From the NCBI GenBank assembly GCA_964447515.1, contig CAYUSS010000001.1, positions 4,092-68,091 of the forward strand: 64,000 nucleotides of DNA, written 5' to 3'. Below, piece by piece: positions 9,608 through 56,240 of this stretch. The stretch is from an uncultured Candidatus Saccharibacteria bacterium. Its GTDB lineage: Bacteria > Patescibacteriota > Minisyncoccia > Minisyncoccales > GWA2-38-27. How positions within the stretch are numbered: position 1 is the first letter of the stretch; each line of letters starts with the position of its first letter. The notes beneath the pieces were generated by a model. The model ran no database searches, was not told the DNA's origin, and was given only the letters and a program-made list of their open reading frames with translations. The translations under genes were made by a program, and so were the position numbers.

Positions 9608-9639
9608 AAGGTCGGGTGTTCAAGGTCGGGTCTTGAACA
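9608..9639. repeat. GTCGGGT-loop hairpin repeat (tandem unit plus closing inverted arm)
   Basis: aaggtcgggtgttcaaggtcgggtcttgaaca. The stem TGTTCAAG/CTTGAACA closes the loop GTCGGGT and is followed by TTTT. Confidence 0.7.
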
Positions 9640-9641
9640 TT

Positions 9642-11171
9642 TTAGTAATTCAGAAATTTTAATTTTTGTTTTTTGTTCAGCTGCCAGGCAATAAAGCCCA
9701 AAGTTAAATATGAAATTATCAACCAGAACCAATGGACATTTTCAATGGTTTTGGCTGCCCAGGAATGAGAAAAGAAATCTACCACTTTTATTAAATAGGT
9801 TAGTAAAAACCAAACCGGCCAGGATAAAATCCAACCCAGGAACTGCCAAAATATCCCGACCAGACCAAAAATAAAGCCCAAAAGCATAATCCAATATAGA
9901 ATGGGTAGAATTAAAATATTAGTTAAGGGGGCTACTAAGGAAATCCTTCCGAAGTTGTAAATTAAAATTGGCAGAGTAAAAATTTGAGCGGCTAAGGTCA
10001 TTGCCAAAATATTTTTTAAGGCGGCAAGTTTTTTTGGAATAAATTTTAACCAATTATTAAAAGTAGGGGTTAAATAAATAATCCCGAGCACTGCTAAAAA
10101 GGAAAGTTGAAAGCCAACATCATCTAATAAAAGCAAGGGATTTATCGCCAGCATTAGAGCCGCTGCCATTACTATTGTTCTGGGACTAATGGACTTTCTT
10201 CCGAGCTTCTGGCCTAAAAGAAACAATCCACCCATTATTCCGGCTCGAATTCCAGAGGGCTGAAACCCGGTCATAATAATAAAAAGAGAAATAAGAATTA
10301 TTGAAAAATAAAATGCCTGACCTCTCCAAAGGCCCAAACCGAGCAATAAAGACATTAAAATAGTAGTCAAAATAGCAACATGCATTCCGGAAACAGCAGT
10401 AATGTGCCTGACGCCGGCAATATTTAATTTTTCTTTTAAATCTTCCGGTATTCTGCTTTTATCCCCTAAGAGCATAGCTCCTAAAATTGAACTCTGGGGA
10501 GGAGAAAGATTTTGAAAAATACTTTCTCTCAATTTATTTTTAAAACCCAAAATTTTAGCGTAAACGACAGAGGCCCGTCCTCTGTCAGTGACAGAGGACG
10601 GGCCTCTGTAAACTTCGATTTCAGGATAATATATTAGAGAATAAATCCCTTCTTTTCTTAAATAATTCTTATAATTAAAATCTTCAAAAACAGGAGGGGT
10701 TTTTAACTCCCCTGTAATTTTTAATTTATCTCCGTATTGATATTCAGGATAACGATTAGCAGTTGCTAAAACTTTCCCGTCAACAGGGCTAGGCCCGACC
10801 TCGCCCTGGACTTGGCTAACTTTTATAGTTAATTTTATGCTATTTCCCCTGACATCGGGCTCTTTGACAACCGTTCCGAGCAAAGTAATATTTTGTTCTA
10901 AATCATTATATTTTCTTAATTCATCATTCTTAATTTTTAATTCAACTACTTGGTGCCGCCAAATTCCTAAAACCAAAAAAATTAAACAGAAGCCGAGCAC
11001 AATTAGCTTTTTGTATTTAGATAAAACAGAAATTAAAATTATTCCTGAAATTAACCCCGCGCCTATAAATAGGTGCGGGGCAATAAAATCCAGCTGAGCG
11101 ACTATTGAATTCAGAAAAATTCCAGAAATGAAGAAAAGACAGAAATAAAAAAATACCTTTGATTTCGTCAT
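9642..11171 (-). CDS. comEC: ComEC/Rec2 competence membrane protein
   Basis: Polytopic protein with the competence-domain motif VRHITAVSGMHVAIL. It carries an in-frame 41-bp perfect palindrome at 10568-10608. Confidence 0.75.
   Translation of the reverse strand: MTKSKVFFYFCLFFISGIFLNSIVAQLDFIAPHLFIGAGLISGIILISVLSKYKKLIVLGFCLIFLVLGIWRHQVVELKIKNDELRKYNDLEQNITLLGTVVKEPDVRGNSIKLTIKVSQVQGEVGPSPVDGKVLATANRYPEYQYGDKLKITGELKTPPVFEDFNYKNYLRKEGIYSLIYYPEIEVYRGPSSVTDRGRASVVYAKILGFKNKLRESIFQNLSPPQSSILGAMLLGDKSRIPEDLKEKLNIAGVRHITAVSGMHVAILTTILMSLLLGLGLWRGQAFYFSIILISLFIIMTGFQPSGIRAGIMGGLFLLGQKLGRKSISPRTIVMAAALMLAINPLLLLDDVGFQLSFLAVLGIIYLTPTFNNWLKFIPKKLAALKNILAMTLAAQIFTLPILIYNFGRISLVAPLTNILILPILYWIMLLGFIFGLVGIFWQFLGWILSWPVWFLLTYLIKVVDFFSHSWAAKTIENVHWFWLIISYLTLGFIAWQLNKKQKLKFLNY
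10568..10608. repeat. 41-bp perfect palindrome embedded in-frame in comEC (GACGGGC-loop variant of the hairpin family)
   Basis: cagaggcccgtcctctgtca g tgacagaggacgggcctctg. It encodes ...RGPSSVTDRGRAS... inside ComEC. Confidence 0.7.
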
Positions 11172-11190
11172 CTATATTGTTAAAACCCTT

Positions 11191-11245
11191 AACACCCGAC
11201 GTTTCCCTTGGCGCCTTCGGCACCAATTCCTCAACGTCGGGTGTT
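11191..11245. repeat. 55-bp element bounded by AACACCCGACG / CGTCGGGTGTT inverted repeats with an internal hairpin
   Basis: Second copy at 56167-56240. The internal stems TTGGCGCC...GGCACCAA and TTGGCGTC...GACGCCAA differ by compensatory changes. Confidence 0.65.
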
Positions 11246-11251
11246 GTAATC

Positions 11252-12205
11252 TTAAAATCCTGTAGCAACTACCGTTACTTTTATTTCTCCTTTTTTTAGT
11301 TTTTCGTTTTGAATTGCTCCAAAAATTATTTTGGCTGAGGGAGAAACTTCCTGGGTAATAATTTTAGCCACTTCGTCCACCTCGGAAAGACTAACATCTT
11401 CATTCCCCGAAACATTAAATAAAATCCCTTTTGCTCCCTTATAAGAAATATCAAGTAAAGGAGAATCAAGGGCTTTCCTGGCTGCTTCCTTGGCTCGTTC
11501 CTGACCTTTTGCTCTTCCTATTCCAAACAAGGCAGAACCCGAATCTTTCATAATTGCTTTGACATCAGCAAAATCAATGTTAATTATACCAGGAAGAACA
11601 ATCAAATCAGAAATTCCCTGAACAGCCTGTCTTAAAATTTCATCACAAATCCAAAAGGCATTTAAAACTGTAGTTTTGGGCTCTAAAATTGAAAGCAACT
11701 TATCGTTGGAAATAGCAATTAAAGTATCAACCTTTTCTTTTAGTTTTCTTTGGCTGTTCTCAGCAATTTCCATTCGCTGAACTCCTTCAAAAGAAAAGGG
11801 TTTGGTAACCACGGCAATTGTCAAAGCGCCTAAATTCTTAGCAATCTCAGCCACAACCGGAGAAGCTCCGGAGCCACAGCCGCCACCCAAGCCGCAAGTA
11901 ATAAAAACCATATCTGTATCTTCCAAAGCTTGCTCAATTTCTTCTCTTTGTTCTTCTGCTGCTTTTCTTCCAACCTCAGGGTTCATACCTGTGCCCAATC
12001 CCTTGGTTAATTCTCTTCCAATCCGAATCCTTTGATGAGCTTTAGTTCTTTGAAGATCTTGGATATCAGCATTTAGAGCGATTAATTTCACCCCCTTAAT
12101 TTTACACCTCATCATCCGAGAAATAGCATTTGTTCCTGACCCTCCGACCCCGACTACTTTAATTTTTGTATTCACCCCGTTAGAAATCTTTGGTAAATTT
12201 TTCAT
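11252..12205 (-). CDS. ftsZ: cell division GTPase FtsZ (core only, no C-terminal tail)
   Basis: GVGGSGTNAISRM and the tubulin signature GLGGGCGSGASPV. It ends ...VVATGF immediately before the repeat at 11191-11245. Confidence 0.85.
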   Translation of the reverse strand: MKNLPKISNGVNTKIKVVGVGGSGTNAISRMMRCKIKGVKLIALNADIQDLQRTKAHQRIRIGRELTKGLGTGMNPEVGRKAAEEQREEIEQALEDTDMVFITCGLGGGCGSGASPVVAEIAKNLGALTIAVVTKPFSFEGVQRMEIAENSQRKLKEKVDTLIAISNDKLLSILEPKTTVLNAFWICDEILRQAVQGISDLIVLPGIINIDFADVKAIMKDSGSALFGIGRAKGQERAKEAARKALDSPLLDISYKGAKGILFNVSGNEDVSLSEVDEVAKIITQEVSPSAKIIFGAIQNEKLKKGEIKVTVVATGF

Positions 12206-12225
12206 AGTTTTTATCCCCGTAGAAA

Positions 12226-12255
12226 TTCGTTTGTTAAGGTTAGATTTCTAACGGG
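12226..12255. repeat. CCCCGTAGAAAT...ATTTCTAACGGGG hairpin (short member of the CCCCGTAGAA family) in the ftsA-ftsZ spacer
   Basis: Inverted arms ccccgtagaaat / atttctaacgggg. Confidence 0.55.
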
Positions 12256-12257
12256 GT

Positions 12258-18639: not shown

Positions 18640-18759
18640 ACAACGAACAGTGAAATATTTTACATATAATAAAAAAAGCCGAAGCGGTTATTCTACCTCG
18701 GCTTGCCCCATCAGTGGAACCTTAATGCCAAAAACTGACATTTATAATTACAAGCGAGG

Positions 18760-18830
18760 GGGAAAAAGAAAAATTTATTTTTCTTTTTTGACCGAACGAA
18801 GTAATTTCAAGGTTCTGACAAAGTCAGGTT
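18760..18830. repeat. partial copy of the mosaic intergenic repeat
   Basis: cgagggggaaaaagaaaaatttatttttcttttttgaccgaacgaag...caaggttctg matches the 38395-38590 copy and the reverse complement of the 27715-27960 copy. Confidence 0.6.
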
Positions 18831-19292: not shown

Positions 19293-20180
19293 GTGTTATT
19301 ATTTAACTATATGGAAAAAGACATACAAAAAATAACAATAGAAGACAAGAATTATCCGGAACTATTGAAAAAAATTAAAAAAGCACCGAAAACTCTTTAT
19401 TTCAAAGGAGAAATCAAATTTAATCAACCCTGCTTTGCTGTTGTGGGAACCAGAAGATATTCTTCTTACGGCAAGCAAGTTGCCTTGGAAATGGCTGGAG
19501 ATTTGGCAGAAGCTGGATTAATAATTGTTAGCGGCTTGGCTCCGGGAATTGATACTTTTGTTCATACAGCCGTAGTTGAGCGGGGGAAAAGAACAATTGC
19601 CGTACTTGGCACAGGTCTTGATGAAAAAAGCATTTATCCCAGAGAAAATATCAAATTAGCTAGAAAAATTGTTGAATTAGGAGGTTGTTTAATTTCAGAA
19701 TATCCTCCGGGAACTCCGGGCAGTCGTTTTACTTTTCCCGAGAGAAACCGAATAATTTCCGGCCTTTCTTTAGGCGCTCTAATAGTTGAGGCAAAAGAAA
19801 AAAGCGGGGCCTTAATTACGGCAAATTATACTCTCTCCCAAGAAAGAAAGCTCTTGGCTATACCGGGTTCAATTTATGCTTTAAACTCCCGCGGCCCTCA
19901 CATTTTAATAAAAAGAGGGGCAAAATTAGTTGAATCAGCCAATGATATTTTGAAAGAGTTGAACCTCCCTCAAGAATCAACGAGGCCCGTCCTCGTTGAA
20001 GGAGATACCGGAAAAGAAAATCTTATCCTGGATTCTCTAAAACAAGAATCTCTATATATTGACAAAATCATTGAAAAAACTAAACTTTCAGCTGCCACCG
20101 TAGCCAGCATTCTTACTGTTTTAGAAATGAAAGGAAAGGTAAAAAACTTAGGAAGAAACATTTATGCGCTTAGGCGCTAA
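19293..20180 (+). CDS. dprA: DNA processing protein DprA
   Basis: Rossmann-like SGLAPGIDTFVH...GTGLD. An in-frame hairpin repeat at 19979-19997 encodes ESTRPVLVEG. Confidence 0.8.
   Translation: MLLFNYMEKDIQKITIEDKNYPELLKKIKKAPKTLYFKGEIKFNQPCFAVVGTRRYSSYGKQVALEMAGDLAEAGLIIVSGLAPGIDTFVHTAVVERGKRTIAVLGTGLDEKSIYPRENIKLARKIVELGGCLISEYPPGTPGSRFTFPERNRIISGLSLGALIVEAKEKSGALITANYTLSQERKLLAIPGSIYALNSRGPHILIKRGAKLVESANDILKELNLPQESTRPVLVEGDTGKENLILDSLKQESLYIDKIIEKTKLSAATVASILTVLEMKGKVKNLGRNIYALRR
19979..19997. repeat. AACGAGG-CCCGTCC-TCGTT hairpin inside dprA (reverse orientation of the aacgaggacgggcctcgtt unit at 36572)
   Basis: Exact reverse complement of the 36572-36590 unit. Confidence 0.6.
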
Positions 20181-22391: not shown

Positions 22392-22472
22392 TATAAAAAA
22401 TACCTCATTTGAGGTATTTTTTATTTTAATCAATGTATAAGTCCTCTACTTCTCCATATAGCATCAATCAAT

Positions 22473-22507
22473 GTTCAACGTCGGGTGTTCAATGTCGGGT
22501 ATTGAAC
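22473..22507. repeat. GTCGGGT-loop hairpin repeat overlapping the 3' end of the PAP2 gene
   Basis: gttcaacgtcgggtgttcaatgtcgggtattgaac. On the minus strand it encodes the C-terminal ...FNTRH plus the TGA stop. Confidence 0.7.
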
Positions 22508-23001
22508 ATAGGCCAGATTTTGTGGATTAGCCAGCCGGAAAATATTCCGACAAGAGCTCCGGCTAAAATGTCTAAGGGCCAATGGATGCCCACAAAAATT
22601 CTGGCTAAACAAATTAAAAAACTGGCTAAAAAAAACAAAAGTCCGGCTTTTTTATTGTAAAAATAAACAATGATGGACATTGCAAAAAAGAAAGCAGCAT
22701 GGCCCGAAGGAAAAGCAACCGAATTATGAGTTATAAGCAAATTAACGTGATTATGAATAAATGGTCTTGGTCTTTGCCAAAGCCAGCGAATTAACTCAAC
22801 AACAACAAATCTTGCCAAAACAGCCGAGATAATACTTTGAAAAACCATTCTCCAGTATTTTTTAAACCGTATTATCAGAAACAAAAACAGAGAGAAGATT
22901 AAAACATACTCAAAATACTCAGCAAAAAAAACGGCTAAAACATCTAACCAGAGCCATTTTAAAGCAAGTTGATTTATTTGTTCAAAAAAATATAAATCCA
23001 T
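22489..23001 (-). CDS. PAP2-family phosphatase (undecaprenyl-diphosphatase-like)
   Basis: PAP2 motifs PSGH and HWPLD. The last five codons and the stop lie inside the repeat. Confidence 0.7.
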   Translation of the reverse strand: MDLYFFEQINQLALKWLWLDVLAVFFAEYFEYVLIFSLFLFLIIRFKKYWRMVFQSIISAVLARFVVVELIRWLWQRPRPFIHNHVNLLITHNSVAFPSGHAAFFFAMSIIVYFYNKKAGLLFFLASFLICLARIFVGIHWPLDILAGALVGIFSGWLIHKIWPMFNTRH

Positions 23002-23018: not shown

Positions 23019-23055
23019 CGTTCAATACCGGGTGTTCAATGTCGGGTATTGAACA
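23019..23055. repeat. GTCGGGT-loop hairpin repeat overlapping the 3' end of folD (same orientation as 22473-22507)
   Basis: cgttcaataccgggtgttcaatgtcgggtattgaaca. It encodes the folD C-terminal ...FNTRH plus stop. Confidence 0.7.
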
Positions 23056-23866
23056 ATTTGATTAAATTTTCAAGCAAGTAGGCAACTGTCATTGGGCCTA
23101 CTCCTCCGGGAACAGGAGTAACACAGCTTGTTTTTTTAGAAACGCTTTTGAAATCTACATCCCCTACTAATTTTCCTTTTTTGAAAGATATACCGGCATC
23201 AATAACCACCACGCCCTTTTTAACCATCTTTCCGGTAATAAGATTAGGTTTGCCTACTCCAGAAATTATAATATCTGCTTTTTTAGTAAAAAAAGAAATA
23301 TTTTTGGTAAATTCATTAACAACTGAAAAGGTTACTTTCTTTTTACTCAGCCAAACGGTTAGCGGCAAACCAACTAATTTTCCAGCTCCAACCAAAACTA
23401 CATTTTTACCTTTAAGAGATATTTTATAATCTTTTAAAAGGCGGGAAATTCCAGCAACTGCTGGCGGTGAAAGAGCTAAACTTCCAGTATAAAACTTGCC
23501 CAGATTTATTTCCGATAAAGCATCAATATCTTTTTCTGGGGGGATAAGATTAAGAAATTCTTGAGGGGTAAATTTTTTAGGTAAAGGCAGTTGAATTATA
23601 GCTCCGGAAACGGTTGGTTTTTTGGCAATTTCAAAAATTTCTTTCTTCAGTTTTACCGGGCTAATTTTTGCTGGAAATTTAAATAATTTAAAACCAATCC
23701 CAAGAGTTTTACAGGCCTTTTCTTTTTGACGAATAAAAATTTTGGACACAGAATCTTCACCAATGAAAATTACAGCTAAACTTAATTTTAGACCTTGTTG
23801 CTTTATCTTTTTTTCAAGATTTTTTAGAATTTTCTCAGCTGATTTTTTCCCATCCAAAATTATCAT
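23036..23866 (-). CDS. folD: bifunctional methylenetetrahydrofolate dehydrogenase/cyclohydrolase
   Basis: MIILDGKKSAEKILKNLEKKIKQ...LAVIFIGEDSVSKIFIRQKEKACKTLGI. Confidence 0.85.
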   Translation of the reverse strand: MIILDGKKSAEKILKNLEKKIKQQGLKLSLAVIFIGEDSVSKIFIRQKEKACKTLGIGFKLFKFPAKISPVKLKKEIFEIAKKPTVSGAIIQLPLPKKFTPQEFLNLIPPEKDIDALSEINLGKFYTGSLALSPPAVAGISRLLKDYKISLKGKNVVLVGAGKLVGLPLTVWLSKKKVTFSVVNEFTKNISFFTKKADIIISGVGKPNLITGKMVKKGVVVIDAGISFKKGKLVGDVDFKSVSKKTSCVTPVPGGVGPMTVAYLLENLIKLFNTRH

Positions 23867-23909
23867 CTAAGTGTTCAAACTACCGAGAACCGTTCTCGCT
23901 AGATTGATT

Positions 23910-25188: not shown

Positions 25189-25228
25189 ACGAGGACGGGT
25201 CTCGTTAATGAGACCCGTCCTCGTTTTA
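25189..25228. terminator. 15-bp-stem hairpin acgaggacgggtctc/gagacccgtcctcgt plus T-run (GACGGGT-loop hairpin family) between leuS and glyA
   Basis: Perfect 15-bp stem with a 6-nt loop, then TTT. Confidence 0.6.
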
Positions 25229-27714: not shown

Positions 27715-27960
27715 AATTCTTAATCATTGCGGCTTCGCCGCATAATTGCGGCGTTCGGTTGAAATACAAAAATAAGAACCTTTCGTCGCTTCGCTCCTCA
27801 AGAACCTTGATTCGCTAGGGTATAATCATATTGCGGCTTCGCCGCATAATTGCTTCGCTCGGTTGAAAAAGAAAAATGAATTTTTCTTTTTCTCCCTCGT
27901 TTGCAATTATAGTCTTGAATTAAATTTTTGTATTTCTCCCTCACTTGCAATTATAACATA
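27715..27960. repeat. mosaic intergenic repeat (two partial tandem copies); inverted partner at 38395-38590
   Basis: attgcggcttcgccgcataattgc occurs twice. The segment 27841-27930 is the near-exact reverse complement of 38399-38488. It contains the palindrome gaaaaagaaaaat..atttttctttttc. Confidence 0.7.
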
Positions 27961-31596: not shown

Positions 31597-31634
31597 TGTT
31601 CAAGGTCGGGTGTTCAAGGTCGGGTCTTGAACAT
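31597..31634. repeat. GTCGGGT-loop hairpin repeat (tandem unit x2 plus closing arm); same as 9608-9639
   Basis: gtgttcaaggtcgggtgttcaaggtcgggtcttgaaca then TTTTT. Confidence 0.7.
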
Positions 31635-31636
31635 TT

Positions 31637-32665
31637 TTATATCGTTATTGCTTTTTGCTCTCTTTTCTTCTGGAGAAATTCTTTAAGAAATTCAAAGAGT
31701 ATTCCGGCTAAAGGAATAGCCAAAAAAGCTCCCAAAATTCCCCAAAGTTTTCCCCCAATAATTAGGGCAATAACCACCATCACCGGAGGAATACCAATAA
31801 TTCTCTTCATTAATAAAGGAGACAAAACATTACCCTCAATCTGCTGAATTAAGAAAAAAACAATTAAAACAAAGAGCGCTTTCAGCATTTCGCTAGGAAA
31901 AATAATTAAGAAAAGCAAAATTGCGGTAAAAAGCGGTCCAATATAGGGAATAAAATTAAAGATCCCGGCAAATAACCCTAAAATAAAAGGATATTTAATA
32001 TCAAAAAGCAAAAATGTAATAAAAGAAGCTATTCCTACAAATAAACAAGCTATTATCCGCACCCCAAACCAGCCGGCAACTTTTTTCTGACATCTTCCCC
32101 AAAGATTCAAAACGTATGTCTCGTATTTTTTGGGAAAAAGAAGAACTAAAGTTCTCTCAGCCGCTTTTTCTTCAAGAGAAAGGAAAATAGCAATAGTAAT
32201 AATGCTTAAAAATGAAAAAAATCCACCAAAAACAACAAACAAAACGTTGAAGATACTACTGGCCATTTTTCCTAAAGTATTTCCAATACTTTCTATAAAA
32301 CTTTCCATACTCTCAAAGGCCTGGAACCCGAGTCCTTCCAAAGGAGGAGAAATTTTCTCAAAATACTGAGGAAAGGATTCTAAAAATAAATGAATTTCAG
32401 AAGCAAACAAAGGAATAACTAAATAGATTAAAAAACTAAAAACTCCGAAAAAGCCGAAATATACAAGAATAATACTAAGAATCCGAGGAATTTTTTTCCT
32501 CTGGAGAAAATCAATAACTGGATTGAACAAAATTGAAATTGTCAAAGCAAAAATAAACCAGATAATGATATTCCTAATGGAGTAAAAAACAAAAAAACAA
32601 ATAACAACAAGAGAAATTTTTAAGATTGTTCTCCAAGATATATCTAATATTTTTTCGTTGTCCAT
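31637..32665 (-). CDS. AI-2E family transporter (PerM/UPF0118)
   Basis: 8-TM topology with conserved C-terminal ...LAIPLAG. Confidence 0.65.
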   Translation of the reverse strand: MDNEKILDISWRTILKISLVVICFFVFYSIRNIIIWFIFALTISILFNPVIDFLQRKKIPRILSIILVYFGFFGVFSFLIYLVIPLFASEIHLFLESFPQYFEKISPPLEGLGFQAFESMESFIESIGNTLGKMASSIFNVLFVVFGGFFSFLSIITIAIFLSLEEKAAERTLVLLFPKKYETYVLNLWGRCQKKVAGWFGVRIIACLFVGIASFITFLLFDIKYPFILGLFAGIFNFIPYIGPLFTAILLFLIIFPSEMLKALFVLIVFFLIQQIEGNVLSPLLMKRIIGIPPVMVVIALIIGGKLWGILGAFLAIPLAGILFEFLKEFLQKKREQKAITI

Positions 32666-36563: not shown

Positions 36564-36571
36564 ATCATAAC

Positions 36572-36608
36572 AACGAGGACGGGCCTCGTTGATGAAATCC
36601 GTCCTCGT
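36572..36608. repeat. GACGGGC-loop hairpin repeat aacgaggacgggcctcgtt...ccgtcctcgt
   Basis: Member of the hairpin family, directly after the ncRNA terminator. Confidence 0.6.
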
Positions 36609-36629
36609 ATTGTTTCATATTTCATAAAT

Positions 36630-38336
36630 TTACTGGATTACTCCCATCTCCCTACTTACCGTCTCATCGTCTGGCAAAGTAGTATCTATTGCTGGGGCTA
36701 TATTCTCAATAATTGTCTCTGTCCATTGGTCTTCCCCGCTAATCCTTGCTTCATTAATAATTGAAGCCACCTCTCCCTTTTGTTTTGAAGTAGGAGTTAG
36801 GGCGACTTGGAAAGCAATGTTTGGGGCTGGATTCAAAACCCCTGTCCCTGCTTCCATCATCTCATTATCTCTAACCGACCAAACAATTTCCCTGCTTTGG
36901 TTATCAAAAGTGAATTTTGTGTTTTCTTCTTCAGGAAAAATTTTCCCGGTTAACCTGACGTTAGAAGGCAACATTGCTTTTACCTTTACATTTTTAACAT
37001 CATTAAAATAATTCTTTGCCTGCCAAATTATAACATATCTCGTCTCTTCCCCGACTTTTGGTGGAATTGGCCCTGATTTTCCAAAAATCTCATTCTGATA
37101 ATAACCTTTCTGGGAAATAGCTAATTTTGAATTTACTTTTGTTACAAATTCTTCTTTCATTTGAGAAAGCAAAACCGTATTTTTCAAAAGCCCATTTTTT
37201 TCTTGAGGACTGCTAATTTCCCATTTTTCTTTGAGATTTATCCAAAACTCAACTTTACCTTCCTCCCCTTGCCCTAAAAAGCGAAGCTTAGAAATATCCT
37301 CATAGTCCCACATTATAGAATTATCTCCTTTACTGAATTGACCATTATTTATTTTTATAGTTTCGAAATCAAATCCATCACCCCCTAAACTAACTGCTAA
37401 AAACAAATCTCTAAAAGGGTCTTCTCCAATGTTTCTAAAATAAATTTCGTAATGAAGCAAATCTCCGGAATTGGCAATGTAGTTATCTTGCTTATTTATT
37501 TGCTGGAAAACAAAAAGACGAGGTTCGGCAATTTCCACCCCTCTGGTTATTTTTTTTATTGGAATAAATTCATTTTCTAACCAAATACCAAGAATAGCTT
37601 GGAAAATTTTTTGCTCTTTAAACTCTCCTAATAACTTTCCTTTAATTTCAACTCTTCCTCCCTCAGCTCTATTTAAAAGAGGAATTTCCCATTCTGTTTT
37701 CCCCAATGTTTCGGGTTCACTTTCCAAAAATTCAAAACCTGAAGGATATTCAATTTTTATTCCAAGATTGCTAAGAGGATAATCCAAACTGGAAAAATAA
37801 TTCAAAGAAAAATTGAAATCTCTGCCTGTTTCTACTTTTGAAGGAAGGTCAAACTCAAGAGTTAAAGGAACTGATTTGACCACGGTGGTAAAAGTAGTAA
37901 CTGACTCATAGCGGGCTTTTAAATTTTTCGGCCGACAACTCAACCAAACCTTAGCTGTCTTCGCTTCGTTTTCTCTCCCAAAAAGCCTTCCCTTAAACTG
38001 GAAAGTTCTTTCTTCACCGGGATAAATATCTCCTAATTCTTCCGGTCCTATTTCTTGTCTTCGGGAAAGATTTTCTTCTCCTTCAGCTTCATTATCCGAA
38101 GAAATAATAGTATGTTCTGGAAATTCAAAAATAAGTTGTGGTTCTTCTAATCTAACATTGCCATTATTTTTATATTTCACCGTATATTCAACTTCCTGAA
38201 AAATCGCTGTTTCTTCGGGACCTAAAATTTCCAATTTCAAAATTTCCTTTGAGTAAGGGTTTCTTTGCCAATACCAAAAACCAGCAATTCCCAAAACTAA
38301 AGCTAAAATTATAATAAAAAAAATAAATTTCTTCAT
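36630..38336 (-). CDS. large hypothetical secreted/membrane-anchored protein (568 aa)
   Basis: N-terminal TM/signal; beta-rich, with no diagnostic motif. Confidence 0.5.
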   Translation of the reverse strand: MKKFIFFIIILALVLGIAGFWYWQRNPYSKEILKLEILGPEETAIFQEVEYTVKYKNNGNVRLEEPQLIFEFPEHTIISSDNEAEGEENLSRRQEIGPEELGDIYPGEERTFQFKGRLFGRENEAKTAKVWLSCRPKNLKARYESVTTFTTVVKSVPLTLEFDLPSKVETGRDFNFSLNYFSSLDYPLSNLGIKIEYPSGFEFLESEPETLGKTEWEIPLLNRAEGGRVEIKGKLLGEFKEQKIFQAILGIWLENEFIPIKKITRGVEIAEPRLFVFQQINKQDNYIANSGDLLHYEIYFRNIGEDPFRDLFLAVSLGGDGFDFETIKINNGQFSKGDNSIMWDYEDISKLRFLGQGEEGKVEFWINLKEKWEISSPQEKNGLLKNTVLLSQMKEEFVTKVNSKLAISQKGYYQNEIFGKSGPIPPKVGEETRYVIIWQAKNYFNDVKNVKVKAMLPSNVRLTGKIFPEEENTKFTFDNQSREIVWSVRDNEMMEAGTGVLNPAPNIAFQVALTPTSKQKGEVASIINEARISGEDQWTETIIENIAPAIDTTLPDDETVSREMGVIQ

Positions 38337-38394: not shown

Positions 38395-38590
38395 TTTAAT
38401 TCAAGACTATGATTGCAAACGAGGGAGAAAAAGAAAAATTCATTTTTCTTTTTCAACCGAGCGAAGCAATTATGCGGCGAAGCCACAATATGATTATACC
38501 TTAGCGAATCAAGGTTCTGCCGACTTCGTCTGGCCAGAGACCGACTTCGTCGAGCCGACGGCCGAGCGTTAGCGAGGCAGATTCTTAAAT
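38395..38590. repeat. mosaic intergenic repeat, inverted copy of 27715-27960
   Basis: ttcaagactatgattgcaaacgagggagaaaaagaaaaattcatttttctttttcaaccgagcgaagcaattatgcggcgaagccacaatatgattata... is the reverse complement of the 27781-27930 copy. Confidence 0.7.
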
Positions 38591-45900: not shown

Positions 45901-45965
45901 ATGTAACGCGGAAAGGTAACGTTACATCGTTACAATAAAGTAGACATAATTGACAAACGGCCGTT
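45901..45965. terminator. two consecutive perfect palindromes after rplT (bidirectional terminator candidate)
   Basis: atgtaacgcggaaaggtaacgttacat, then agacataattgacaaacgg/ccgtttgtcaattatgtct with 19-bp arms. Confidence 0.5.
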
Positions 45966-46116
45966 TGTCAATTATGTCTAAAAACATTCTCGAGATGTCC
46001 GGTTGTGTTAAAAAAGCCGCTTTTTCAAGGTGGCTTTTGAATTTTCCCGGTAAAAACTCCGGGGTTTCTAACAGAAGAAATATAAAAAATCGCGTCGTCA
46101 GGGTGGGATAAGACAT

Positions 46117-48194: not shown

Positions 48195-48195
48195 A

Positions 48196-48278
48196 CCCCG
48201 TAGAAGAATTTCGAATTAAAAATTTCTTCGAAATTTTTTATTTGCCCCGCAGGGGCCTTTCGAAATTTCTCTACGGGG
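48196..48278. repeat. palindromic element with CCCCGTAGAAGAATTTCGA / TCGAAATTTCTCTACGGGG arms (CCCCGTAGAA family)
   Basis: The arms are near-identical to the 1981-2058 copy but the core differs (contains ccccgcagggg). Confidence 0.6.
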
Positions 48279-48345
48279 TATAATAATATCTCTCTTTATC
48301 TTAATCCTAAATTATAAAAAATAAAACCCAAAAAAAATTATTAGA

Positions 48346-48809: not shown

Positions 48810-48824
48810 ATTCACCCCGTTTAG

Positions 48825-48846
48825 AAATTCACGATTTCTAACGGGG
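48825..48846. repeat. CCCCGT(T)AGAAAT...ATTTCTAACGGGG hairpin; supplies the polX stop codon
   Basis: ccccgtttagaaattcacgatttctaacgggg. The polX C-terminal ...KPR plus TAG stop is read from it. Confidence 0.55.
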
Positions 48847-50568
48847 TTTAAAATATTTTAATAATTTTTCCAAAGGTCGGGTGTTAATTATGTCTTTTTT
48901 CTCCGCCCAGCCGCGGCGAGCCTGGTATACTCCGAATTCCATATATCTCATCTGGCTTTTGTGATGACTATCAGTATTAATGACCAATCTCACTCCCATT
49001 TCAATGGCTTTTTTTATATTGATGTCGTTTAAATCTAATCTTCCAGGAAAAGAATTTATTTCTAAAATTGTATTGGTTTCTTGGGCGGCTCTTAAAATTT
49101 TTTCTATATCTATTTGGTATTCATCTCTCTTTTTTAAAATTCTTCCGGTTGGATGGGAAATAATTTTAATATAGGGGTTTTTCATTGCTTGAATTATCCT
49201 CTCGGTCATCTTTTCTTTTGACATTTTAAAGTTGGAGTGAATCCCGGCAATGGCATAGTCCAATTTTTTTAATGCCTCATCTTTAATATCAATGGAACCG
49301 TCATTTAAGATATTGGTTTCTGCTCCTTGAAGAATTCTAAACTTTATATTTTGTATCTTGTATTTCCTGTTTAATTTATCTATTTCTTCCCGCTGCTGAG
49401 CTAATTGTTCCTCATTTAATCCCTGTTCAATTCGTAAAAATTTTGTATGGTCAGTAATCCCTAAATATTCATATCTTCGCACCATAGCCATATCTTCCAT
49501 CTCTTTAATTGAATTTTGCCCTCCATCCCATTTTGAATGACAATGTAAATCCCCCCTTATATCTTTTAATTCTACTAATTTTGGCAATTTTCTTTTTAGA
49601 GCGGCTTCAATTTCCCCTTGATTTTCTCTTATTTCCGGAGGAATCCATTGGAGGCCAAGAACTTTATAAACACCTTCTTCGGTTTTGCCGGCAATCATTT
49701 TCTTGCCCCGAAAAACCCCGTATTCATTAAGTTTTAAACCTTTCTCTAGGGCAATTTTTCTGGTAGCAATATTATGCTCTTTTGAACCAATAAAATACTG
49801 CAGAGCAGAACCATAACTTTTTTCAGGAACCACCCTGAGATCCATATCAAAACCATCTCTCATTCGGACCGAGGACTTTGTTGCGCCTCTACCCCAAATT
49901 CTAATAACTCCTGGCAAAGAAACAAAAAAATCCATTATTTTTTTTGGATTTTTTGAAATTACCAAGAAATCAACATCACCGATTGTTTCTTTCCTTCTTC
50001 TAACCGAACCGGCTACTGAAATTTTCTGAACCTCCTTTAAATTTTTAAGTTTTTCTTCAATTTCTTTAACAATGGGTAAAATATTCCCTAAAAGAAATCT
50101 TCCCTTACTTTTCTTTAAGAAAGCGATTCCCTCTAAAATATTTTTCTCTGTTTTTATTCCAAAACCTTCTAAATTTCTAATTTTCCTGGCTTTAGCGACT
50201 TTTTCTAAATCTTTTAGGTCCTTCACTCCAAGTTCTTGAAAAAGAACTTTTGCTCTTTTAGGCCCCATTCCTTCAACCTTTGTTATCTCTTCTAAATTTA
50301 GAGGCAGTTTCTTTTTAAATTTTTCGTAATATTTAATCTTTCCTGTTTTTAGATATTCTTCAATTTTTTGGGCAATGCTTTCCCCAACACCGGGAATTTC
50401 TTCAAGCGCCTTAATCCCTCCTCTTTCATAAATCTCCTTAACATCCCTCTCTAAGGATTCTAAATTAAGAGCGGCTTTTTGGTAAGCATAGGGCTTAAAT
50501 TGAACTTCTTCTATTTCTAAGAAGTAAGCTATCTCGAAAAAAATCTTAGCCAATTCCTGGTTATTCAT
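48838..50568 (-). CDS. polX: DNA polymerase X family protein with C-terminal PHP domain
   Basis: HhH motifs, Pol-beta-like GSVRRRKETIGDVDFLV, and the PHP domain HCHSKWDGG...DHT. Confidence 0.85.
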   Translation of the reverse strand: MNNQELAKIFFEIAYFLEIEEVQFKPYAYQKAALNLESLERDVKEIYERGGIKALEEIPGVGESIAQKIEEYLKTGKIKYYEKFKKKLPLNLEEITKVEGMGPKRAKVLFQELGVKDLKDLEKVAKARKIRNLEGFGIKTEKNILEGIAFLKKSKGRFLLGNILPIVKEIEEKLKNLKEVQKISVAGSVRRRKETIGDVDFLVISKNPKKIMDFFVSLPGVIRIWGRGATKSSVRMRDGFDMDLRVVPEKSYGSALQYFIGSKEHNIATRKIALEKGLKLNEYGVFRGKKMIAGKTEEGVYKVLGLQWIPPEIRENQGEIEAALKRKLPKLVELKDIRGDLHCHSKWDGGQNSIKEMEDMAMVRRYEYLGITDHTKFLRIEQGLNEEQLAQQREEIDKLNRKYKIQNIKFRILQGAETNILNDGSIDIKDEALKKLDYAIAGIHSNFKMSKEKMTERIIQAMKNPYIKIISHPTGRILKKRDEYQIDIEKILRAAQETNTILEINSFPGRLDLNDINIKKAIEMGVRLVINTDSHHKSQMRYMEFGVYQARRGWAEKKDIINTRPLEKLLKYFKPR

Positions 50569-51215: not shown

Positions 51216-51308
51216 AAATAGCTATTAATCATTATACTCTTTCATTTTACCAAAAATTTTAGCAAAATTCTAATATTAAAACGAGGTCTGGTCTCATAAA
51301 GACGGGCC

Positions 51309-52316
51309 TCATAAAGAAAACTTATTAGCTATATTCTTTACACTTCCTGTTAAAAATTTTATTCCTAATTTTATCAATATTATCAGCCCAAATAAAGCAA
51401 CTAAAACTTCTGCTCCTCTTAGAATAAAACTAAAAGTAATTCCTGTAGCCGATCCTAACCCTAAAGAACCAAAAGCAAGAGCCTGAGCTATTTCTGAGCT
51501 CCCTGCTTTAGCTGGAAAGGGAAATATATAAGACAGATGAACAAAAAATAATATTGTCAGAGCAATCAAAATATTCATCTCCCCGACTAAAAAGAAAAGC
51601 AAAAACCAACAGCGGACAAAAGCTGAAAAAATTTTCAAAAAAGTAAGCCCCAAACCTTTCCACATTAAACTTTTTTTAAAATCAAAAAAATGAAAAACTT
51701 CTTTCTCAAAATCTTGAGTTATATATTTATTTTCTTTACCATTGACTCCAAAAAATTTCGGAAACCATTTTAAAATACTCTCTTTTTTAAAACTTTTAAA
51801 GTAAAAAACAGCTAAAAGCAGGGTTAAAATCCCTATAAAAACCCCGACAGCTATTCCCAAATTTCCCAGAGGACGATTAGTTAAAAAAAGAAAAGAAATT
51901 GCTCCAGAAATTAAAAACAATAAAAGAATACTTATATAAAGCAATTTCTCAATAGTATTTACAGTAAGATTTTTTTCCCAGTTTAGAGAAAATTTTTTCT
52001 TAATAGCGTAAATTTTAAATGCCTCTCCCCCAAGAAAACTTGTAGGGAATAAATAACTAATAGCGAAACTGGCAAACAAAATCTCCCCTAAACTAAAAAC
52101 AGAGAGATTATATCCCTGAGATTTGAAAATAAACTTCCATCTCCAAATTTCAACTAACCAAATTAGCAAAGTTATCCCTATAATCACCAGCCCTTTGTAG
52201 CCAGAAAAAGTAAAAAGAATTTCTTTTATCTCTTTCCATCCTACCCATTTAATAACCCAGAAAAAAAGCCCCACTCCAATTAAAAAAGAAACTACAAAAA
52301 TCAAAATCTTTTTCAT
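51309..52316 (-). CDS. polytopic membrane protein (UPF0104/flippase-like family)
   Basis: Track ORF 51309..52340. The first 8 codons (MSGIKHYC) are read from the repeat element, and MKKILIF at 52316 is taken as the start. Confidence 0.5.
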   Translation of the reverse strand: MKKILIFVVSFLIGVGLFFWVIKWVGWKEIKEILFTFSGYKGLVIIGITLLIWLVEIWRWKFIFKSQGYNLSVFSLGEILFASFAISYLFPTSFLGGEAFKIYAIKKKFSLNWEKNLTVNTIEKLLYISILLLFLISGAISFLFLTNRPLGNLGIAVGVFIGILTLLLAVFYFKSFKKESILKWFPKFFGVNGKENKYITQDFEKEVFHFFDFKKSLMWKGLGLTFLKIFSAFVRCWFLLFFLVGEMNILIALTILFFVHLSYIFPFPAKAGSSEIAQALAFGSLGLGSATGITFSFILRGAEVLVALFGLIILIKLGIKFLTGSVKNIANKFSL

Positions 52317-52324
52317 ACAATAAT

Positions 52325-52408
52325 GCTTAATACCCGACATTGAATACCGAATCTGGCAGGAATCAGACCCCTATTATTTTTCAATATGTTTAATGTCGGG
52401 TATTAAAC
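52325..52408. repeat. about 85-bp element with terminal GTCGGGT-loop hairpins in inverted orientation (MITE-like)
   Basis: Left end gcttaatACCCGACattgaat, right end gtttaatGTCGGGTattaaac. Confidence 0.6.
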
Positions 52409-52541
52409 ATATATTTTCATATCATATATAAACATTATATTCTATTTTTAGACAAAAACAAAACCAGCACCGAACTTCGCTTTAGTGCTGGTTTTCTCAA
52501 ATCTTAATAACTAAACCATTCCTGAAAAAAATCAAGAAACC

Positions 52542-53291: not shown

Positions 53292-53308
53292 AATTCAACA
53301 ATTCTATA

Positions 53309-53347
53309 ATACGAGACCCGACCTCGTAACGAGGTCGGGTCTCGTAT
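53309..53347. terminator. 39-bp perfect palindrome atacgagacccgacctcgt aa cgaggtcgggtctcgtat (GTCGGGT-loop hairpin on both strands), bidirectional terminator candidate
   Basis: 19-bp perfect arms, followed by ttacgttttt. Confidence 0.6.
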
Positions 53348-53374
53348 TTACGTTTTTATAAGAACCTGCCTCGC

Positions 53375-53440
53375 TAACGCTCGGCAGAACCTTGATTCGC
53401 TAAGGAACAATCATATAGTCTTGAATTAAAATAGAGAAGA
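53375..53440. repeat. partial copy of the mosaic intergenic repeat
   Basis: cctcgctaacgctcggcagaaccttgattcgctaagg...atcatatagtcttgaattaaa is shared with 27785-27935 and 38520-38590. Confidence 0.55.
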
Positions 53441-53463
53441 CAAAAATTCTCTCAGAAAGGAGC

Positions 53464-53940: not shown

Positions 53941-54065
53941 ATCTTTTGCTTAGTAAAACTTACTGATTTGGATCTTTTAGTTTGTTTTTTAAGTTTTTAA
54001 CAAACTTCGGGATGCTTTTCTATTTTATTCTGCCAAAATAGTTTGTCAAGTCCTTTTATTAACAT

Positions 54066-54336
54066 TGCCCGACAGGATTCGAACTAACATCAATTTAGCG
54101 GAGCGAATTTTATTCAAATTCAAGGCGCGAGGAGTGAAGTGTGTTATTTACACACGAGCGACGAGCAACAAAGAAGCTGGATAAAATTCACCCGCCCGCA
54201 GGGAAGCGAAATAATAGGCCAATTTCTTCGTTACTCCTCCTCGAAGTGTTTTCTAACACTCCTTCGTCGTCGTGCCTTGAACTTGACCTATTCTTTCGCT
54301 TCTAAACTTGATGGTAGTTCGAATCCTGCCGGGCTT
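54066..54336. mobile_element. about 270-bp palindromic element with about 40-bp tRNA-like terminal inverted repeats (copy A); no ORF
   Basis: The ends gcccgacaggattcgaactaacatcaatttagcggagcga and tcgcttctaaacttgatggtagttcgaatcctgccgggc are reverse complements. Both contain the GGUUCGAAUCC T-arm-like motif. The two internal halves are also related, giving a long hairpin. It is about 95% identical to the reverse complement of 58342-58610. Confidence 0.7.
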
Positions 54337-55279
54337 ACAAAAAGTACTCGCACTCATTGCATCTTTTTTCACAAAGACGCTTTTTGGACTCTTCAGAAAA
54401 GTTAAGCGCTAAATGTCCTTTTGGTAATATCGGTAATTCCCCCAAATCAACTTCAACATATCTTATTCCTGATTCTGACCTTATCTGTTTTGTTATGAAA
54501 TCATCTATTCTTTCTAAACTAGGGGAAACAATATCAATAATTAAATTATGATGCCCAGAATAAACCTTAACTAGATTATAAACCAGGGGACAGTTCTCAA
54601 ACCTTCTTATCAATTTAGAAACAACATCAGGAGAAGTCTCAATTCCAATAGTAGCTGTCACCGAATAAAATTTTTTAATATTTAATAATCCTTGAATTTT
54701 TAATATATCCTTTTCAATTAATTTTTCAACTCTATTCTTAGCCCCGACCGGAGTTAATCCAGTCTCCTTTGCAATTTTAACAAAACTTTTTCTTCCATTT
54801 TGGGACAAGATCTTAATTATTTTAAGGTCAATTTTGTCCAAATTCTTTAAATTCCAAAAGCGAGGAGCGGGATAATCTTCAACGGAAAAATCAGCTACTT
54901 TTATTCTGTCGCATAAAACAGCAAACTTTATATCTTTGAGCTTTAACTTTTTTCTCTTTCTTCTCATCAAATCCATTATTGTCCGGTAGGCCTTGCCAGT
55001 AACAATATCATTATCAACCAATAAAACTTTTCTCCCCTTTATTTTATCTTCCTCTAATCCCTTTCCATAATCATCCATAGTAATAAAAGTTATGTTTTTA
55101 TTTTTTTGAGATAACCAATGGTAAAGCCCTTCAGCATAAAAAACACCATCATCTTCTAATCCGATTATACACCCTTTATCTTTACCAAAATATTTCTTTA
55201 CTTCTTTTCCAATTCCATTAATAAACTTTCTAACTGGTTTAAGATCCAAAAGAGTATTTTTCGGCATATTTTTTAACAT
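54335..55279 (-). CDS. phosphoribosyltransferase domain fused to AsnC/Lrp-type HTH regulator domain
   Basis: PRTase motif KVLLVDNDIVTGKAY, AsnC HTH LDKIDLKIIKILSQNGRKSFVKIAKETGLTPVGAKNRVEKLIEKDIL, and a C-terminal CxxC. The last codons overlap element A. Confidence 0.55.
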   Translation of the reverse strand: MLKNMPKNTLLDLKPVRKFINGIGKEVKKYFGKDKGCIIGLEDDGVFYAEGLYHWLSQKNKNITFITMDDYGKGLEEDKIKGRKVLLVDNDIVTGKAYRTIMDLMRRKRKKLKLKDIKFAVLCDRIKVADFSVEDYPAPRFWNLKNLDKIDLKIIKILSQNGRKSFVKIAKETGLTPVGAKNRVEKLIEKDILKIQGLLNIKKFYSVTATIGIETSPDVVSKLIRRFENCPLVYNLVKVYSGHHNLIIDIVSPSLERIDDFITKQIRSESGIRYVEVDLGELPILPKGHLALNFSEESKKRLCEKRCNECEYFL

Positions 55280-56126
55280 AATGTTTTATTAAATCATCAC
55301 GAAGTTCAGGAGTAGAAGTAGCAATTAATAAATCCATCTTATCATGTTGTCTTCCGGGAATAAATTGGTAATCATTATAGCTCCCGTCAGAACCAACGCT
55401 AACAATCTGACAGTTAGCTTTTTTAGCAATTGGAAAACCAGGATCAATCTCTGAACGCGGCTCATTAAACATCACATAGGCATCAACTAATCCTGAAGCC
55501 AGGAAGGCATAAATATAAGAGCCGCCTTGAGGATAAAAAAGGGCTTTAGGATGCATATTTCTGATTAAGTCTTCAAAAATATCAAGAAACTTTGGAGAAT
55601 ACTGAGAACTCATTATGTAACTAGATAAAACAATGGGTTCGGTCAATTTTTTCTTGAAAGAAGGTTTAATTTTCTTTTTCTCCCCGGTCTTCATTGAAAC
55701 TAAATAATTCCCATCTTCTTCGGTGATATAATATTTTTCATTAACAATATCAGCTATGCCGCAGTATAAAGGGCTTTTCTCTTTGTCAAAAAAACTCAGG
55801 ACAGTATACCAATTGTGTTCAAACCCTCTAAGATAAAGCATTGAACCGTCAAAAGGGTCAATAGAGCCGAAAATTTCCCCTCCGTTTTTAATATCTCTGC
55901 CTTCTGGTTCAGAAAAAATGGTTGCTTTTATTTGATGTTCTTTTAAAAGTTTTTCTAAAATATCTTCTCCTACTCTATCAATTCCAATTTCCAGGTCTTC
56001 CGGCCTATTTATTGTCTCGCCTAAAACCTGTCTTCCCCCTCCACCGGCGGCTATTCTCTTTACCTCTTTAACTGTCTCAATCAGGTATTCAACTAACAAG
56101 TTTTTTATTTGCTGTTTTTTTCCCAT
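55239..56126 (-). CDS. inositol monophosphatase / FBPase-family (FIG) protein
   Basis: Metal-binding motif SIDPFDGS. Confidence 0.5.
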   Translation of the reverse strand: MGKKQQIKNLLVEYLIETVKEVKRIAAGGGGRQVLGETINRPEDLEIGIDRVGEDILEKLLKEHQIKATIFSEPEGRDIKNGGEIFGSIDPFDGSMLYLRGFEHNWYTVLSFFDKEKSPLYCGIADIVNEKYYITEEDGNYLVSMKTGEKKKIKPSFKKKLTEPIVLSSYIMSSQYSPKFLDIFEDLIRNMHPKALFYPQGGSYIYAFLASGLVDAYVMFNEPRSEIDPGFPIAKKANCQIVSVGSDGSYNDYQFIPGRQHDKMDLLIATSTPELRDDLIKHYVKKYAEKYSFGS

Positions 56127-56166
56127 TACTTAAGTGTAGCATTTTCCTTTCTTTTTTAAAATAATC

Positions 56167-56240
56167 AACACCCGACGTTTCCCTTGGCGTCTCTGACGCC
56201 AATTCCTCAACGTCGGGTGTTTCAATAACGTCGGGTGTTG
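56167..56240. repeat. AACACCCGACG...CGTCGGGTGTT element (second copy) plus extra CGTCGGGTGTTG half-site, downstream of groEL
   Basis: Internal hairpin TTGGCGTC tct GACGCCAA, which is the compensatory variant of the 11191-11245 copy. Confidence 0.65.

Follow-up and report, generated by a model that had tools for sequence, protein, structure and literature searches.

A dispersed family of CGGG-loop hairpins with REP/REPIN-like traits in a Minisyncoccales-like Patescibacterium

Results

A conserved loop on covarying stems

The 64,000-nt stretch of DNA analyzed here (the window; contig CAYUSS010000001.1, positions 4,092 to 68,091, of an uncultured Candidatus Saccharibacteria bacterium assigned by GTDB to the Minisyncoccales) carries genes nearly all on its minus strand, including ftsZ, comEC, dprA, leuS, glyA, folD, metG, ileS, argS, groES and groEL. 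Between and within these genes lie short hairpins with a CGGG-containing loop, described in a sequence-only reading of the same DNA as a dispersed family in which a conserved loop is held by covarying stems. GTCGGGT/ACCCGAC is the most over-represented 7-mer of the window (18 occurrences against 2.5 expected under a third-order Markov model), and GWCGGGY is found 31 times, against 6.2 ± 2.5 (maximum 13) in dinucleotide-preserving shuffles, which confirms for the window that the loop is enriched beyond chance. An unbiased census over the whole window returned 151 perfect hairpins in which at least 5 bp of stem enclose a 7-nt loop. Thirteen of them have an RNCGGGY loop, and no other loop word was found more than twice.

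To the census we added a flank test on all 31 GWCGGGY occurrences, hairpin-like or not, and therefore without selection bias. Complementary flanks of at least 3 bp surround 21 of these sites (background 2.2%) and flanks of at least 5 bp surround 12 (background 0.24%), which corresponds to a binomial P of ~1e-24 for copies that are not fully independent and that include at least seven distinct stems. The loop word remains the same across these unrelated stems. When 32 copies (22 of the window and 10 of relatives) were aligned without gaps, 84.9% of the cells paired, compared to 59% in shuffled alignments and 36-46% with a slid partner; changes on both sides are seen at nine of nine stem pairs, and the observed covariation score was matched by none of 500 shuffles. 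The covariation figure is inflated because the relatives' copies were picked for forming hairpins, a bias from which the flank test is free. A covariance model built from the same alignment yielded 20 matches at E<0.01 in the window (0.31 per kb). Motif matches at 54067 and 58603 are part of a tRNA-like 49-bp inverted repeat described below and are not family members.

Enrichment, flank test and covariation at all nine pairs together bear out the existence of the family, and every stem listed in the sequence-only reading was recovered at or near its position. The hairpins it had reported as CAAC/GTTG (11231 and 56207) have a local stem of just 3-4 bp and are in fact arms of 55-nt inverted-repeat elements (11191-11245 and 56167-56221). 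The family is also larger than first described, with an extra good copy at 6795-6817, beyond the range covered at that time.

Anatomy of the unit and its four arrangements

The conserved core reads A-N-[R-N-C-G-G-G-Y]-N-T, in which CGGG is invariant; of 31 distinct copies, 30 have A-T as their second stem pair. The loop is closed by G.T 17 times, by G-C eight times, by A-T five times and by T.G once. Since the closing pair forms at the ends of the 7-mer, the true loop is the pentaloop NCGGG. The unit consists of a 5-11-bp stem around this pentaloop, with the inner five stem pairs strictly Watson-Crick. Conservation in the 32-copy alignment is confined to the loop CGGG, the A-T at stem position 2 and the closing pair, columns outside the stem being unconserved. 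A functional strand deduced from the closing pair (G.T 17 times and never A.C, in CGGG sense) would be the gene-antisense strand; there are too few independent events for such a conclusion.

Units measure 19-43 nt and are arranged in four ways. In the 41-nt class a element, the hairpin follows a direct 14-nt half-unit (four copies: 9603, 22472, 23019 and 31597). Class b comprises abutting inverted doublets, each a perfect or nearly perfect palindrome 35-43 nt long (10567, 25189 and 53308, with a decayed one at 36571). Class c consists of wide doublets of 55-90 nt (11191, 56167 and 52323; z-scores of -6 to -9.6) in which the motif lies within an outer stem of at least 13 bp; in the two 55-nt copies (11191 and 56167) this stem encloses an 8-bp apical hairpin, and the two apical hairpins differ through compensatory changes. 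Single hairpins (6795 and 19977) make up the fourth form, next to which decayed or lone motifs are found at 51276 and 48876. Two inverted units separated by a short spacer thus fold into one long hairpin at 10567, 25189, 53308, 11191, 56167 and 52323, as in the doublets of repetitive extragenic palindromic (REP) sequences known as REPINs. As a palindromic unit in the 20-40-bp range of REPs, the element is present in many copies, with ~20 units detected by the covariance model and 13 perfect hairpins. Identical units of 23-41 nt recur at unlinked sites of the window. TGTTCAAG and TGTTCAAT are each found twice, and (A)ACGAG at six sites as well as at L089:8878, just past the window.

Placement relative to genes

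Intergenic copies are located 0-42 nt past the stop of the upstream gene, with CCCG in mRNA sense. Extragenic placement near the 3′ end of the upstream open reading frame (ORF) was found for the copies at 9603, 22472, 23019, 25189, 31597, 36571, 51276, 6795 and L089:8878, in keeping with REPs, which favour such places between co-directional or convergent genes. Each of two genes (PAP2 and folD) takes its last five codons and its TGA stop from a copy, and two copies are inserted in frame in comEC and dprA and leave the gene undisrupted, as others do in topA, pth, tsaD and further genes of relatives. The three kinds of location reported earlier (between genes, in frame inside genes and as gene 3′ ends) are therefore all confirmed, down to the identical FNTRH tails of PAP2 and FolD, the dprA copy (at 19977-19999) and the comEC palindrome, which is perfect and extends over 10567-10609. 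Selection acting at the protein level on the encoded peptides was rejected because the frame and the orientation in which one and the same unit is translated differ from gene to gene. The copies are listed in Table 1.

Table 1. Copies of the CGGG-loop hairpin family in the window (CM, covariance model)
Element	Position	Strand	Context
Single hairpin CTGCGGAG-ACCGGGT-CTCCGCAG	6795..6817	+	Intergenic, 42 nt past stop of amidase-like gene 6859..7818(-); CM E=1.3e-4
Class a, TGTTTAAG-GTCGGG-TGTTCAAG-GTCGGGT-CTTGAACA	9603..9643	+	Begins 2 nt past comEC stop codon
Abutting inverted doublet, perfect 21+1+21 palindrome, unit ACAGAGG-CCCGT-CCTCTGT	10567..10609	.	In frame in comEC, encodes YRGPSSVTDRGRASV
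Class c wide doublet AACACCCGACGTT...AACGTCGGGTGTT	11191..11245	.	13-bp outer stem, 8-bp apical hairpin; between ftsZ stop and comEC start; z=-6.6
Single hairpin TCAACGAGG-CCCGT-CCTCGTTGA	19977..19999	-	In frame, dprA linker (STRPVLV); best CM match, E=7.6e-7
Class a	22472..22512	+	Gives PAP2 last codons FNTRH and TGA stop
Class a	23019..23059	+	Gives FolD last codons FNTRH and TGA stop
Abutting inverted doublet ACGAG-GACGGGT-CTCGT / TGAG-ACCCGTC-CTCGT	25189..25224	.	Directly past leuS stop
Class a	31597..31637	+	3 nt past AI-2E transporter gene stop, 13 nt before metG ORF
Doublet CAACGAGG-ACGGG-CCTCGTTG and decayed inverted partner	36571..36610	.	~20 nt past stop of gene 36630..38336(-)
Lone motif, no stem	48876..48882	+	In frame (NTRP), near PolX C-terminus
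Decayed copy	51276..51316	+	Overlaps stop of gene 51309..52340(-); GACGGGC flanked by direct repeat CTCATAAA, GTCTGGT upstream; CM E=0.48
Wide doublet TTAAT-ACCCGAC-ATTGAA and ATATGTTTAAT-GTCGGGT-ATTAAACATAT	52323..52412	.	Arms 44 nt apart, one long stem; z=-6.2
Perfect abutting inverted doublet AATACGAG-ACCCGAC-CTCGT A ACGAG-GTCGGGT-CTCGTATT	53308..53348	.	Between greA and DUF72-like gene
Class c wide doublet (56167-56221) and motif copies 56230, 56261	56167..56267	.	Between groEL stop and next gene; z=-7.3

Two observations concern the surroundings of individual copies. A near-consensus sigma-70-like promoter on the minus strand (9569-9596; TTGACA-16-TAAAAT, 11 of 12 matches) directly follows, in mRNA sense, the class a element of the comEC stop and heads a 500-nt gap where a 71-aa ORF is called in L086. 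Beside the 53308 doublet, a segment of 74 nt (53356-53429) is 92% identical to positions 9936-10007 of L053, which lie upstream of topA at a different locus; it could be a leader or promoter element that is either mobile or shared.

Turnover between closely related species

Comparison with topA-containing loci of GTDB genomes puts the host among the Patescibacteria. Exact GTCGGGT is nearly restricted to this species and its sister species (L053 and L005, ~80-85% nucleotide identity). The density of covariance model matches declines with phylogenetic distance, from the value given above for the window to ~0.05 per kb in closer relatives and none in ~380 kb of more distant loci. The sister species shares some copies, is devoid of others and has different palindromes at some sites. 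For instance, L053 lacks the class c element of the ftsZ-comEC gap and has another small palindrome there, and its hairpin at the comEC stop comes without the half-unit of the class a element at 9603, a clean 15-nt slippage indel. At the hairpin sites inside comEC and dprA, L053 contains unrelated inserts that are themselves palindromic, and the doublet between leuS and glyA (25189) stands in place of two genes that the sister species possesses. L005 lacks the PAP2-end copy, and L025 has a decayed one (tail ILSIRH followed by the stop) and no copy at the end of folD. Three repeats of the stem word at that gene end changed jointly between sister species, from G/G/C to T/T/A. Gain and loss of copies, combined with this joint change, indicate concerted behaviour at the DNA level.

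Three Minisyncoccales-like loci from metagenome-assembled genomes (L056, L078 and L054) exceed outgroup loci two- to fourfold in the number of perfect G+C-containing hairpins per kb. The palindrome families are each relative's own, such as GATGAGGAC-GCA-GTCCTCATC and TCGCCGCC-GCA-GGCGGCGA in L078. An abundance of palindromes appears to characterize the clade.

The same sites carry different hairpins in relatives

Most strikingly, hairpins with different stems occupy the same positions in relatives whose proteins are only 60-75% identical. Related hairpins, with the NCGGG loop on other stems, are found in relatives more distant than the sister species at the folD stop and in linkers of dprA, topA and pth. 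Those after the folD stop include TACGAGG-CCCGT-CCTCGTA, ATCAAC-ACCCGGT-GTTGAT and TGTTCAAG-ACCCGAC-CTTGAACA; most FolD orthologues are hairpin-less and end in NLVKLNK followed by the stop, and in some relatives the 5′ arm of the folD-end hairpin consists of the K-L-N codons of FolD itself. The dprA linker, located between two highly conserved blocks, contains a perfect palindrome of 7-13 bp in nine of ten orthologues and has no conservation of its amino-acid sequence. Hairpins in the topA loop, the basal state of which is insert-free, include ACAGAGA-CCCGT-TCTCTGT and TTGGCAGAGG-TCGGA-CCTCTGCCAA, among others. In pth, the 3′ arm corresponds to constrained L-V-V codons and the 5′ arm compensates, CTCCTA/TAGGAG or CTCGTA/TACGAG depending on the lineage, and the loop at the orthologous site is ACTGC, ACGGG or CAG. 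Other lineages have heptamer or hexamer tandem repeats at the same sites (pth and topA).

Particular hairpins also recur at different sites. L053 topA and L042 dprA have AATCTATTGATT..AATCAATAGATT in common, and TACGAGG-ACGGG-CCTCGTA is found at a folD end, in pth and in a nucleotidyltransferase gene. In-frame copies of relatives are also located in tsaD, a nucleotidyltransferase gene and an oxidoreductase-like gene, in both orientations and in different frames. The sequence-only reading had considered that stems simply following local sequence would undermine its interpretation; this is partly the case at some sites, namely at the pth 3′ arm and the K-L-N arm at the folD end.

Other repeats in the window

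A second dispersed inverted-repeat family has the ends ACCCCGT(A/T)AGA...TCT(A)ACGGGGT and is usually ~80 nt long (1980-2059, 12174-12257, 48195-48281, 48814-48847 and 62139-62218). ACGGGGT is the second most over-represented 7-mer (12 occurrences against 1.7 expected). Two copies of this family provide the last codons and the stop of PolX (...KPR) and of a GPI-like gene (...NPVEKI), and a related CCCCGTTAGAAA...TTTCTAACGGGG is present in L056. The heptamer repeat (GTTACAA)x4 lies in frame in both ileS (40296-40339) and argS (43707-43750), giving both proteins the peptide KLQVTSYKLQ. Perfect palindromes without the CGGG loop are found in frame in argS (32 bp, 42597-42628, SSKLSIDNLLDE) and in the intergenic region after rplT (40 bp, 45941-45980). 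A 15-nt palindrome, CGAGAAC-C-GTTCTCG, occurs twice, at 7721-7735 inside the amidase-like gene and at 23884-23898 between glyA and folD; the latter was matched by the covariance model (E=0.004).

The perfect 49-bp inverted repeat at 54067-54115 and 58561-58609 resembles the 3′ half of a tRNA (…GTTCGAATCCTGTCGGGC), and ARAGORN predicted no tRNA there. It brackets a 4.4-kb block containing groES, groEL, an IMPase-like gene and an Lrp/PRT-like gene, and may be a remnant of an integration or inversion. An octamer tandem repeat, AATCTCCT (four to five times), is located at 34069-34120 and 59519-59578; read on the minus strand, the octamers at 34069 form a Shine-Dalgarno-like run, (AGGAGATT)n, just upstream of an M16 peptidase gene. 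Finally, A+T-rich palindromes of the form GAAAAAGAAAAAT-NN-ATTTTTCTTTTTC (4363-4390, 27865-27892 and 38427-38454) are embedded in a longer repeated intergenic segment starting with TATAATTACAAGCGAGGGGG, with 64-nt repeats at 18743-18806 and 38408-38471.

Comparison with known RNA, viral and mobile elements

In the window, the Rfam gathering score was reached only by the transfer-messenger RNA (tmRNA) and two tRNAs, and a sub-threshold Rfam scan at two of the elements gave no credible match. A 21-mer of class a had no match in IMG/VR. A viral origin was discarded, the four IMG/VR matches of the 17-mer ACGAGGWCGGGYCTCGT being no more than chance by a rough estimate, as the size of the collection in bases is unreported. 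A genomic island at 44-48 kb was likewise rejected: smpB, the tmRNA gene, infC, rplT, a ParB-like gene and a NUDIX gene are located there. Mimicry of a tRNA anticodon arm or T-arm by the 7-nt loop was rejected by inspection, U33 and A58 being unconserved across loop variants. The AAC...GTT flanks recall the R′′/R′ boxes of integron attC sites, but the elements are too short and do not match RYYYAAC/GTTRRRY. Arrays of the TIGR-Tas (tandem interspaced guide RNA) type consist of tandem ~36-nt units that have 9-nt spacers and in which edge and loop repeats alternate, and they adjoin a tas gene encoding a Nop domain; here the copies are dispersed singles and doublets, the sole periodicity is one 14-nt duplication, and no Nop-domain protein was found among the annotated ORFs. 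A full-text literature search retrieved no paper tying Patescibacteria or the candidate phyla radiation to REP-like elements or to Rickettsia palindromic element (RPE)-like elements.

Discussion

We interpret these hairpins, with moderate confidence, as a lineage-specific REP/REPIN-like family of short palindromic DNA repeats, copied at the DNA level and kept where tolerated in the genome of a Minisyncoccales-like Patescibacterium. REPs are 20-40-bp palindromes that form inverted or head-to-head dimers, lie less than 20 bp from the upstream stop and supply stop codons; intragenic copies are known in DNA-metabolism genes, and the CGTC superfamily has no known transposase (PMC3733652). The family described here shares with them its many palindromic copies of 20-40 nt, organized as singlets and inverted dimers, near or supplying stops, with in-frame copies and species-specific families, and it is this match to published REP behaviour that underlies our reading. 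A DNA-level process is indicated by the Watson-Crick-only inner stems, the perfect palindromes of 35-43 nt, the two orientations of intragenic copies and the joint change of the stem words at the folD end. The sequence-only reading had attributed covariation to selection on a folded nucleic acid. Covariation itself is shown here; on its own it does not establish a folded RNA, since DNA copying or templated correction accounts at least equally well for Watson-Crick stems, perfect palindromes, identical copies at unlinked sites and concerted changes.

We infer that copies multiply as DNA, most likely through a folded single strand recognized at its loop by a hairpin-specific enzyme that would act in trans and be encoded elsewhere in the genome. 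Such an enzyme could be a REP-associated tyrosine transposase (RAYT) of the IS200 type or an analogue, with the loop as recognition determinant; ectopic conversion and self-correction of palindromes by template switching might assist. This enzyme candidate, already put forward in the sequence-only reading, is a reasonable one, as binding and cleavage by group-3 RAYTs reportedly depend on the REP loop, which in perfect-palindrome REPs also distinguishes the two strands (PMC8266576). Stems would covary because only foldable copies propagate and because palindromes would homogenize their own arms. In a compact genome, copies would survive only where harmless, and the places they occupy are the few bases that follow or overlap a stop codon, gaps between cistrons and variable linkers on protein surfaces (comEC and dprA; topA, pth, tsaD and others in relatives). 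Tolerance at only a few permissive places would explain why the same sites are re-occupied in different lineages. Copies that are transcribed would probably act secondarily as 3′ or intercistronic mRNA hairpins, a role known from REPs.

The family differs from described REPs in that the loop and two stem positions are conserved, the stem varies by sub-family and no tag stands at the foot of the stem; its host phylum is not among the eight surveyed in PMC3733652. Because the tag is missing and ~72 kb contain no transposase, it is not a member of the described REP superfamilies, though it works like them. By description, RPEs offer another likeness, as selfish-looking palindromes of reduced genomes that lie between genes and, at tolerated positions, in frame in essential genes; classic RPE-1 is, however, ~100-150 bp long, compared to the much shorter units found here. 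Hairpins recognized by HUH enzymes, such as the ends of IS200/IS605 elements and the origins of CRESS viruses, are also folded single-stranded DNA (ssDNA) in which single-stranded features carry the specificity and the stem may vary. This resemblance is architectural only, as no HUH gene, nick site or element body accompanies the hairpins here.

Several observations weigh against a REP/REPIN-like nature. The unpaired GTAG/CGTC tag that defines REP superfamilies is absent from the 32-copy alignment. Pfam scans of the 20 otherwise unassigned ORFs of the window revealed no transposase, the other ORFs being housekeeping genes, in agreement with the earlier statement that no cognate transposase is present in the window; no mobilizing enzyme was found in the 7.5 kb beyond the window either (~72 kb read in total). 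A tblastn search with RAYT and IS200 TnpA proteins gave no match in ~1.3 Mb of loci, which is only weak negative evidence. Comparison with relatives recovered neither a clean filled-versus-empty junction nor a target-site duplication. The near-constant length of the dprA linker looks like evolution in place, and the pth hairpin, of the same length as hairpin-less orthologues, covaries in place. To these must be added two points that favour an RNA-level role: about 10 of 11 independent intergenic copies, 2-40 nt past the stop, have CCCG in the sense of the upstream gene, and pairing of the class c apical stem is kept by G.U in mRNA sense only.

These last two points support the idea that the hairpins are host-functional RNA elements, located in 3′ untranslated or intercistronic regions with the mRNA-sense structure stem-NCCCGN-stem, whose loop would be read by an RNA-binding protein or an RNase; they would determine the stability or processing of mRNAs, or the termination and coupling of translation, and their stems could vary as long as pairing is kept. 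Strong covariation is compatible with this view, as is the same loop on different stems after the folD stop in several relatives, each with a separate canonical terminator downstream, and stop-adjacent REPs are established to affect mRNA stability and translation (PMC3733652). Nevertheless, gene orientation is confounded with replication strand in the window, and L038:13183, which supplies a stop codon in the opposite orientation, is a clear counter-example. Furthermore, copies inside genes face either way and are read in different frames, stems are nearly free of G.U and many palindromes are long and perfect, copies are gained and lost between sister species with most FolD orthologues hairpin-less, and the loop is not conserved at orthologous sites, as illustrated by the three loops of pth. 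We therefore regard a host RNA function as unlikely, although a hairpin that serves the host, as RNA or as DNA, retains some probability. The proposal that the hairpins are Rho-independent terminators is scarcely credible. Stable hairpins directly after genes, a few with T-runs on the plus strand, do recall terminators, and some copies had been described as terminator-like; yet a terminator scan returned 18 sites in the window against 17.7 expected, none of them a family member, and the T-runs lie on the strand opposite the flanking genes, the mRNA-sense sequence downstream being A-rich or mixed. Many copies are also located inside operons or genes, and in relatives the canonical terminator comes separately, after the hairpin.

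Alternatively, the palindromes could be a mutational by-product of slippage and intrastrand template switching at permissive indel hotspots, devoid of mobility or function, the similarity of their loops reflecting shared ancestry or composition. This explanation accommodates the sites with a palindrome in one relative and heptamer or hexamer tandem repeats in another, the 15-nt slippage indel between sister species, the pth arm that tracks a constrained coding arm without change in length, the in-frame palindromes that lack the CGGG loop, such as the one at 42597-42628 in argS, and the two- to fourfold excess of perfect hairpins in related Minisyncoccales loci over outgroup loci. We nonetheless find it rather improbable, because it fails to explain the most over-represented 7-mer of the window, identical units of 23-41 nt at unlinked sites and a single loop on at least seven unrelated stems. 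Enrichment of GTCGGGT as a DNA uptake word, taken in through ComEC and DprA and with incidental hairpins, would fit a strongly over-represented (~1 per 3.5 kb), lineage-specific word present in coding linkers and as inverted pairs after genes, in a window that contains competence genes. The DNA uptake sequence (DUS) of Neisseria and the uptake signal sequence (USS) of Pasteurellaceae such as Haemophilus resemble such lineage-specific words. Uptake sequences are fixed words of 9-12 nt that occur ~1 per kb and are preferentially taken up, and the uptake word itself forms the stem of a pair, whereas here the word is mostly a loop with complementary flanks (two-thirds of copies), which an uptake signal does not need; it is also loose (GTCGGGT, GACGGGC, ACCGGGT and others) and only 7 nt long. 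An uptake signal is highly improbable.

A further reading, which we consider speculative and doubtful, is that the NCGGG hairpin is recognized by a loop-specific factor of Patescibacteria, which would be an RNA-binding protein or an enzyme of a new kind acting on ssDNA hairpins, and is hence a nucleic-acid signal embedded in coding sequence. Compensatory change would then keep hairpins for long periods at fixed places, namely dprA, topA, pth, comEC and gene ends.

If confirmed genome-wide, the REP/REPIN-like interpretation would extend elements of this type to the candidate phyla radiation. Patescibacteria are deemed extremely streamlined, yet at least four to five dispersed repeat families are present in these 64 kb, and the main one enters essential genes in frame and rewrites C-termini. 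A confirmed family would also provide a natural case in which the loop, and not a 5′ tag, carries the specificity, and its copies would help to mark permissive sites and to follow strain-level dynamics in uncultivated lineages. Gene calling and orthology assignment can be misled by the lineage-specific protein tails and linker inserts that such hairpins create.

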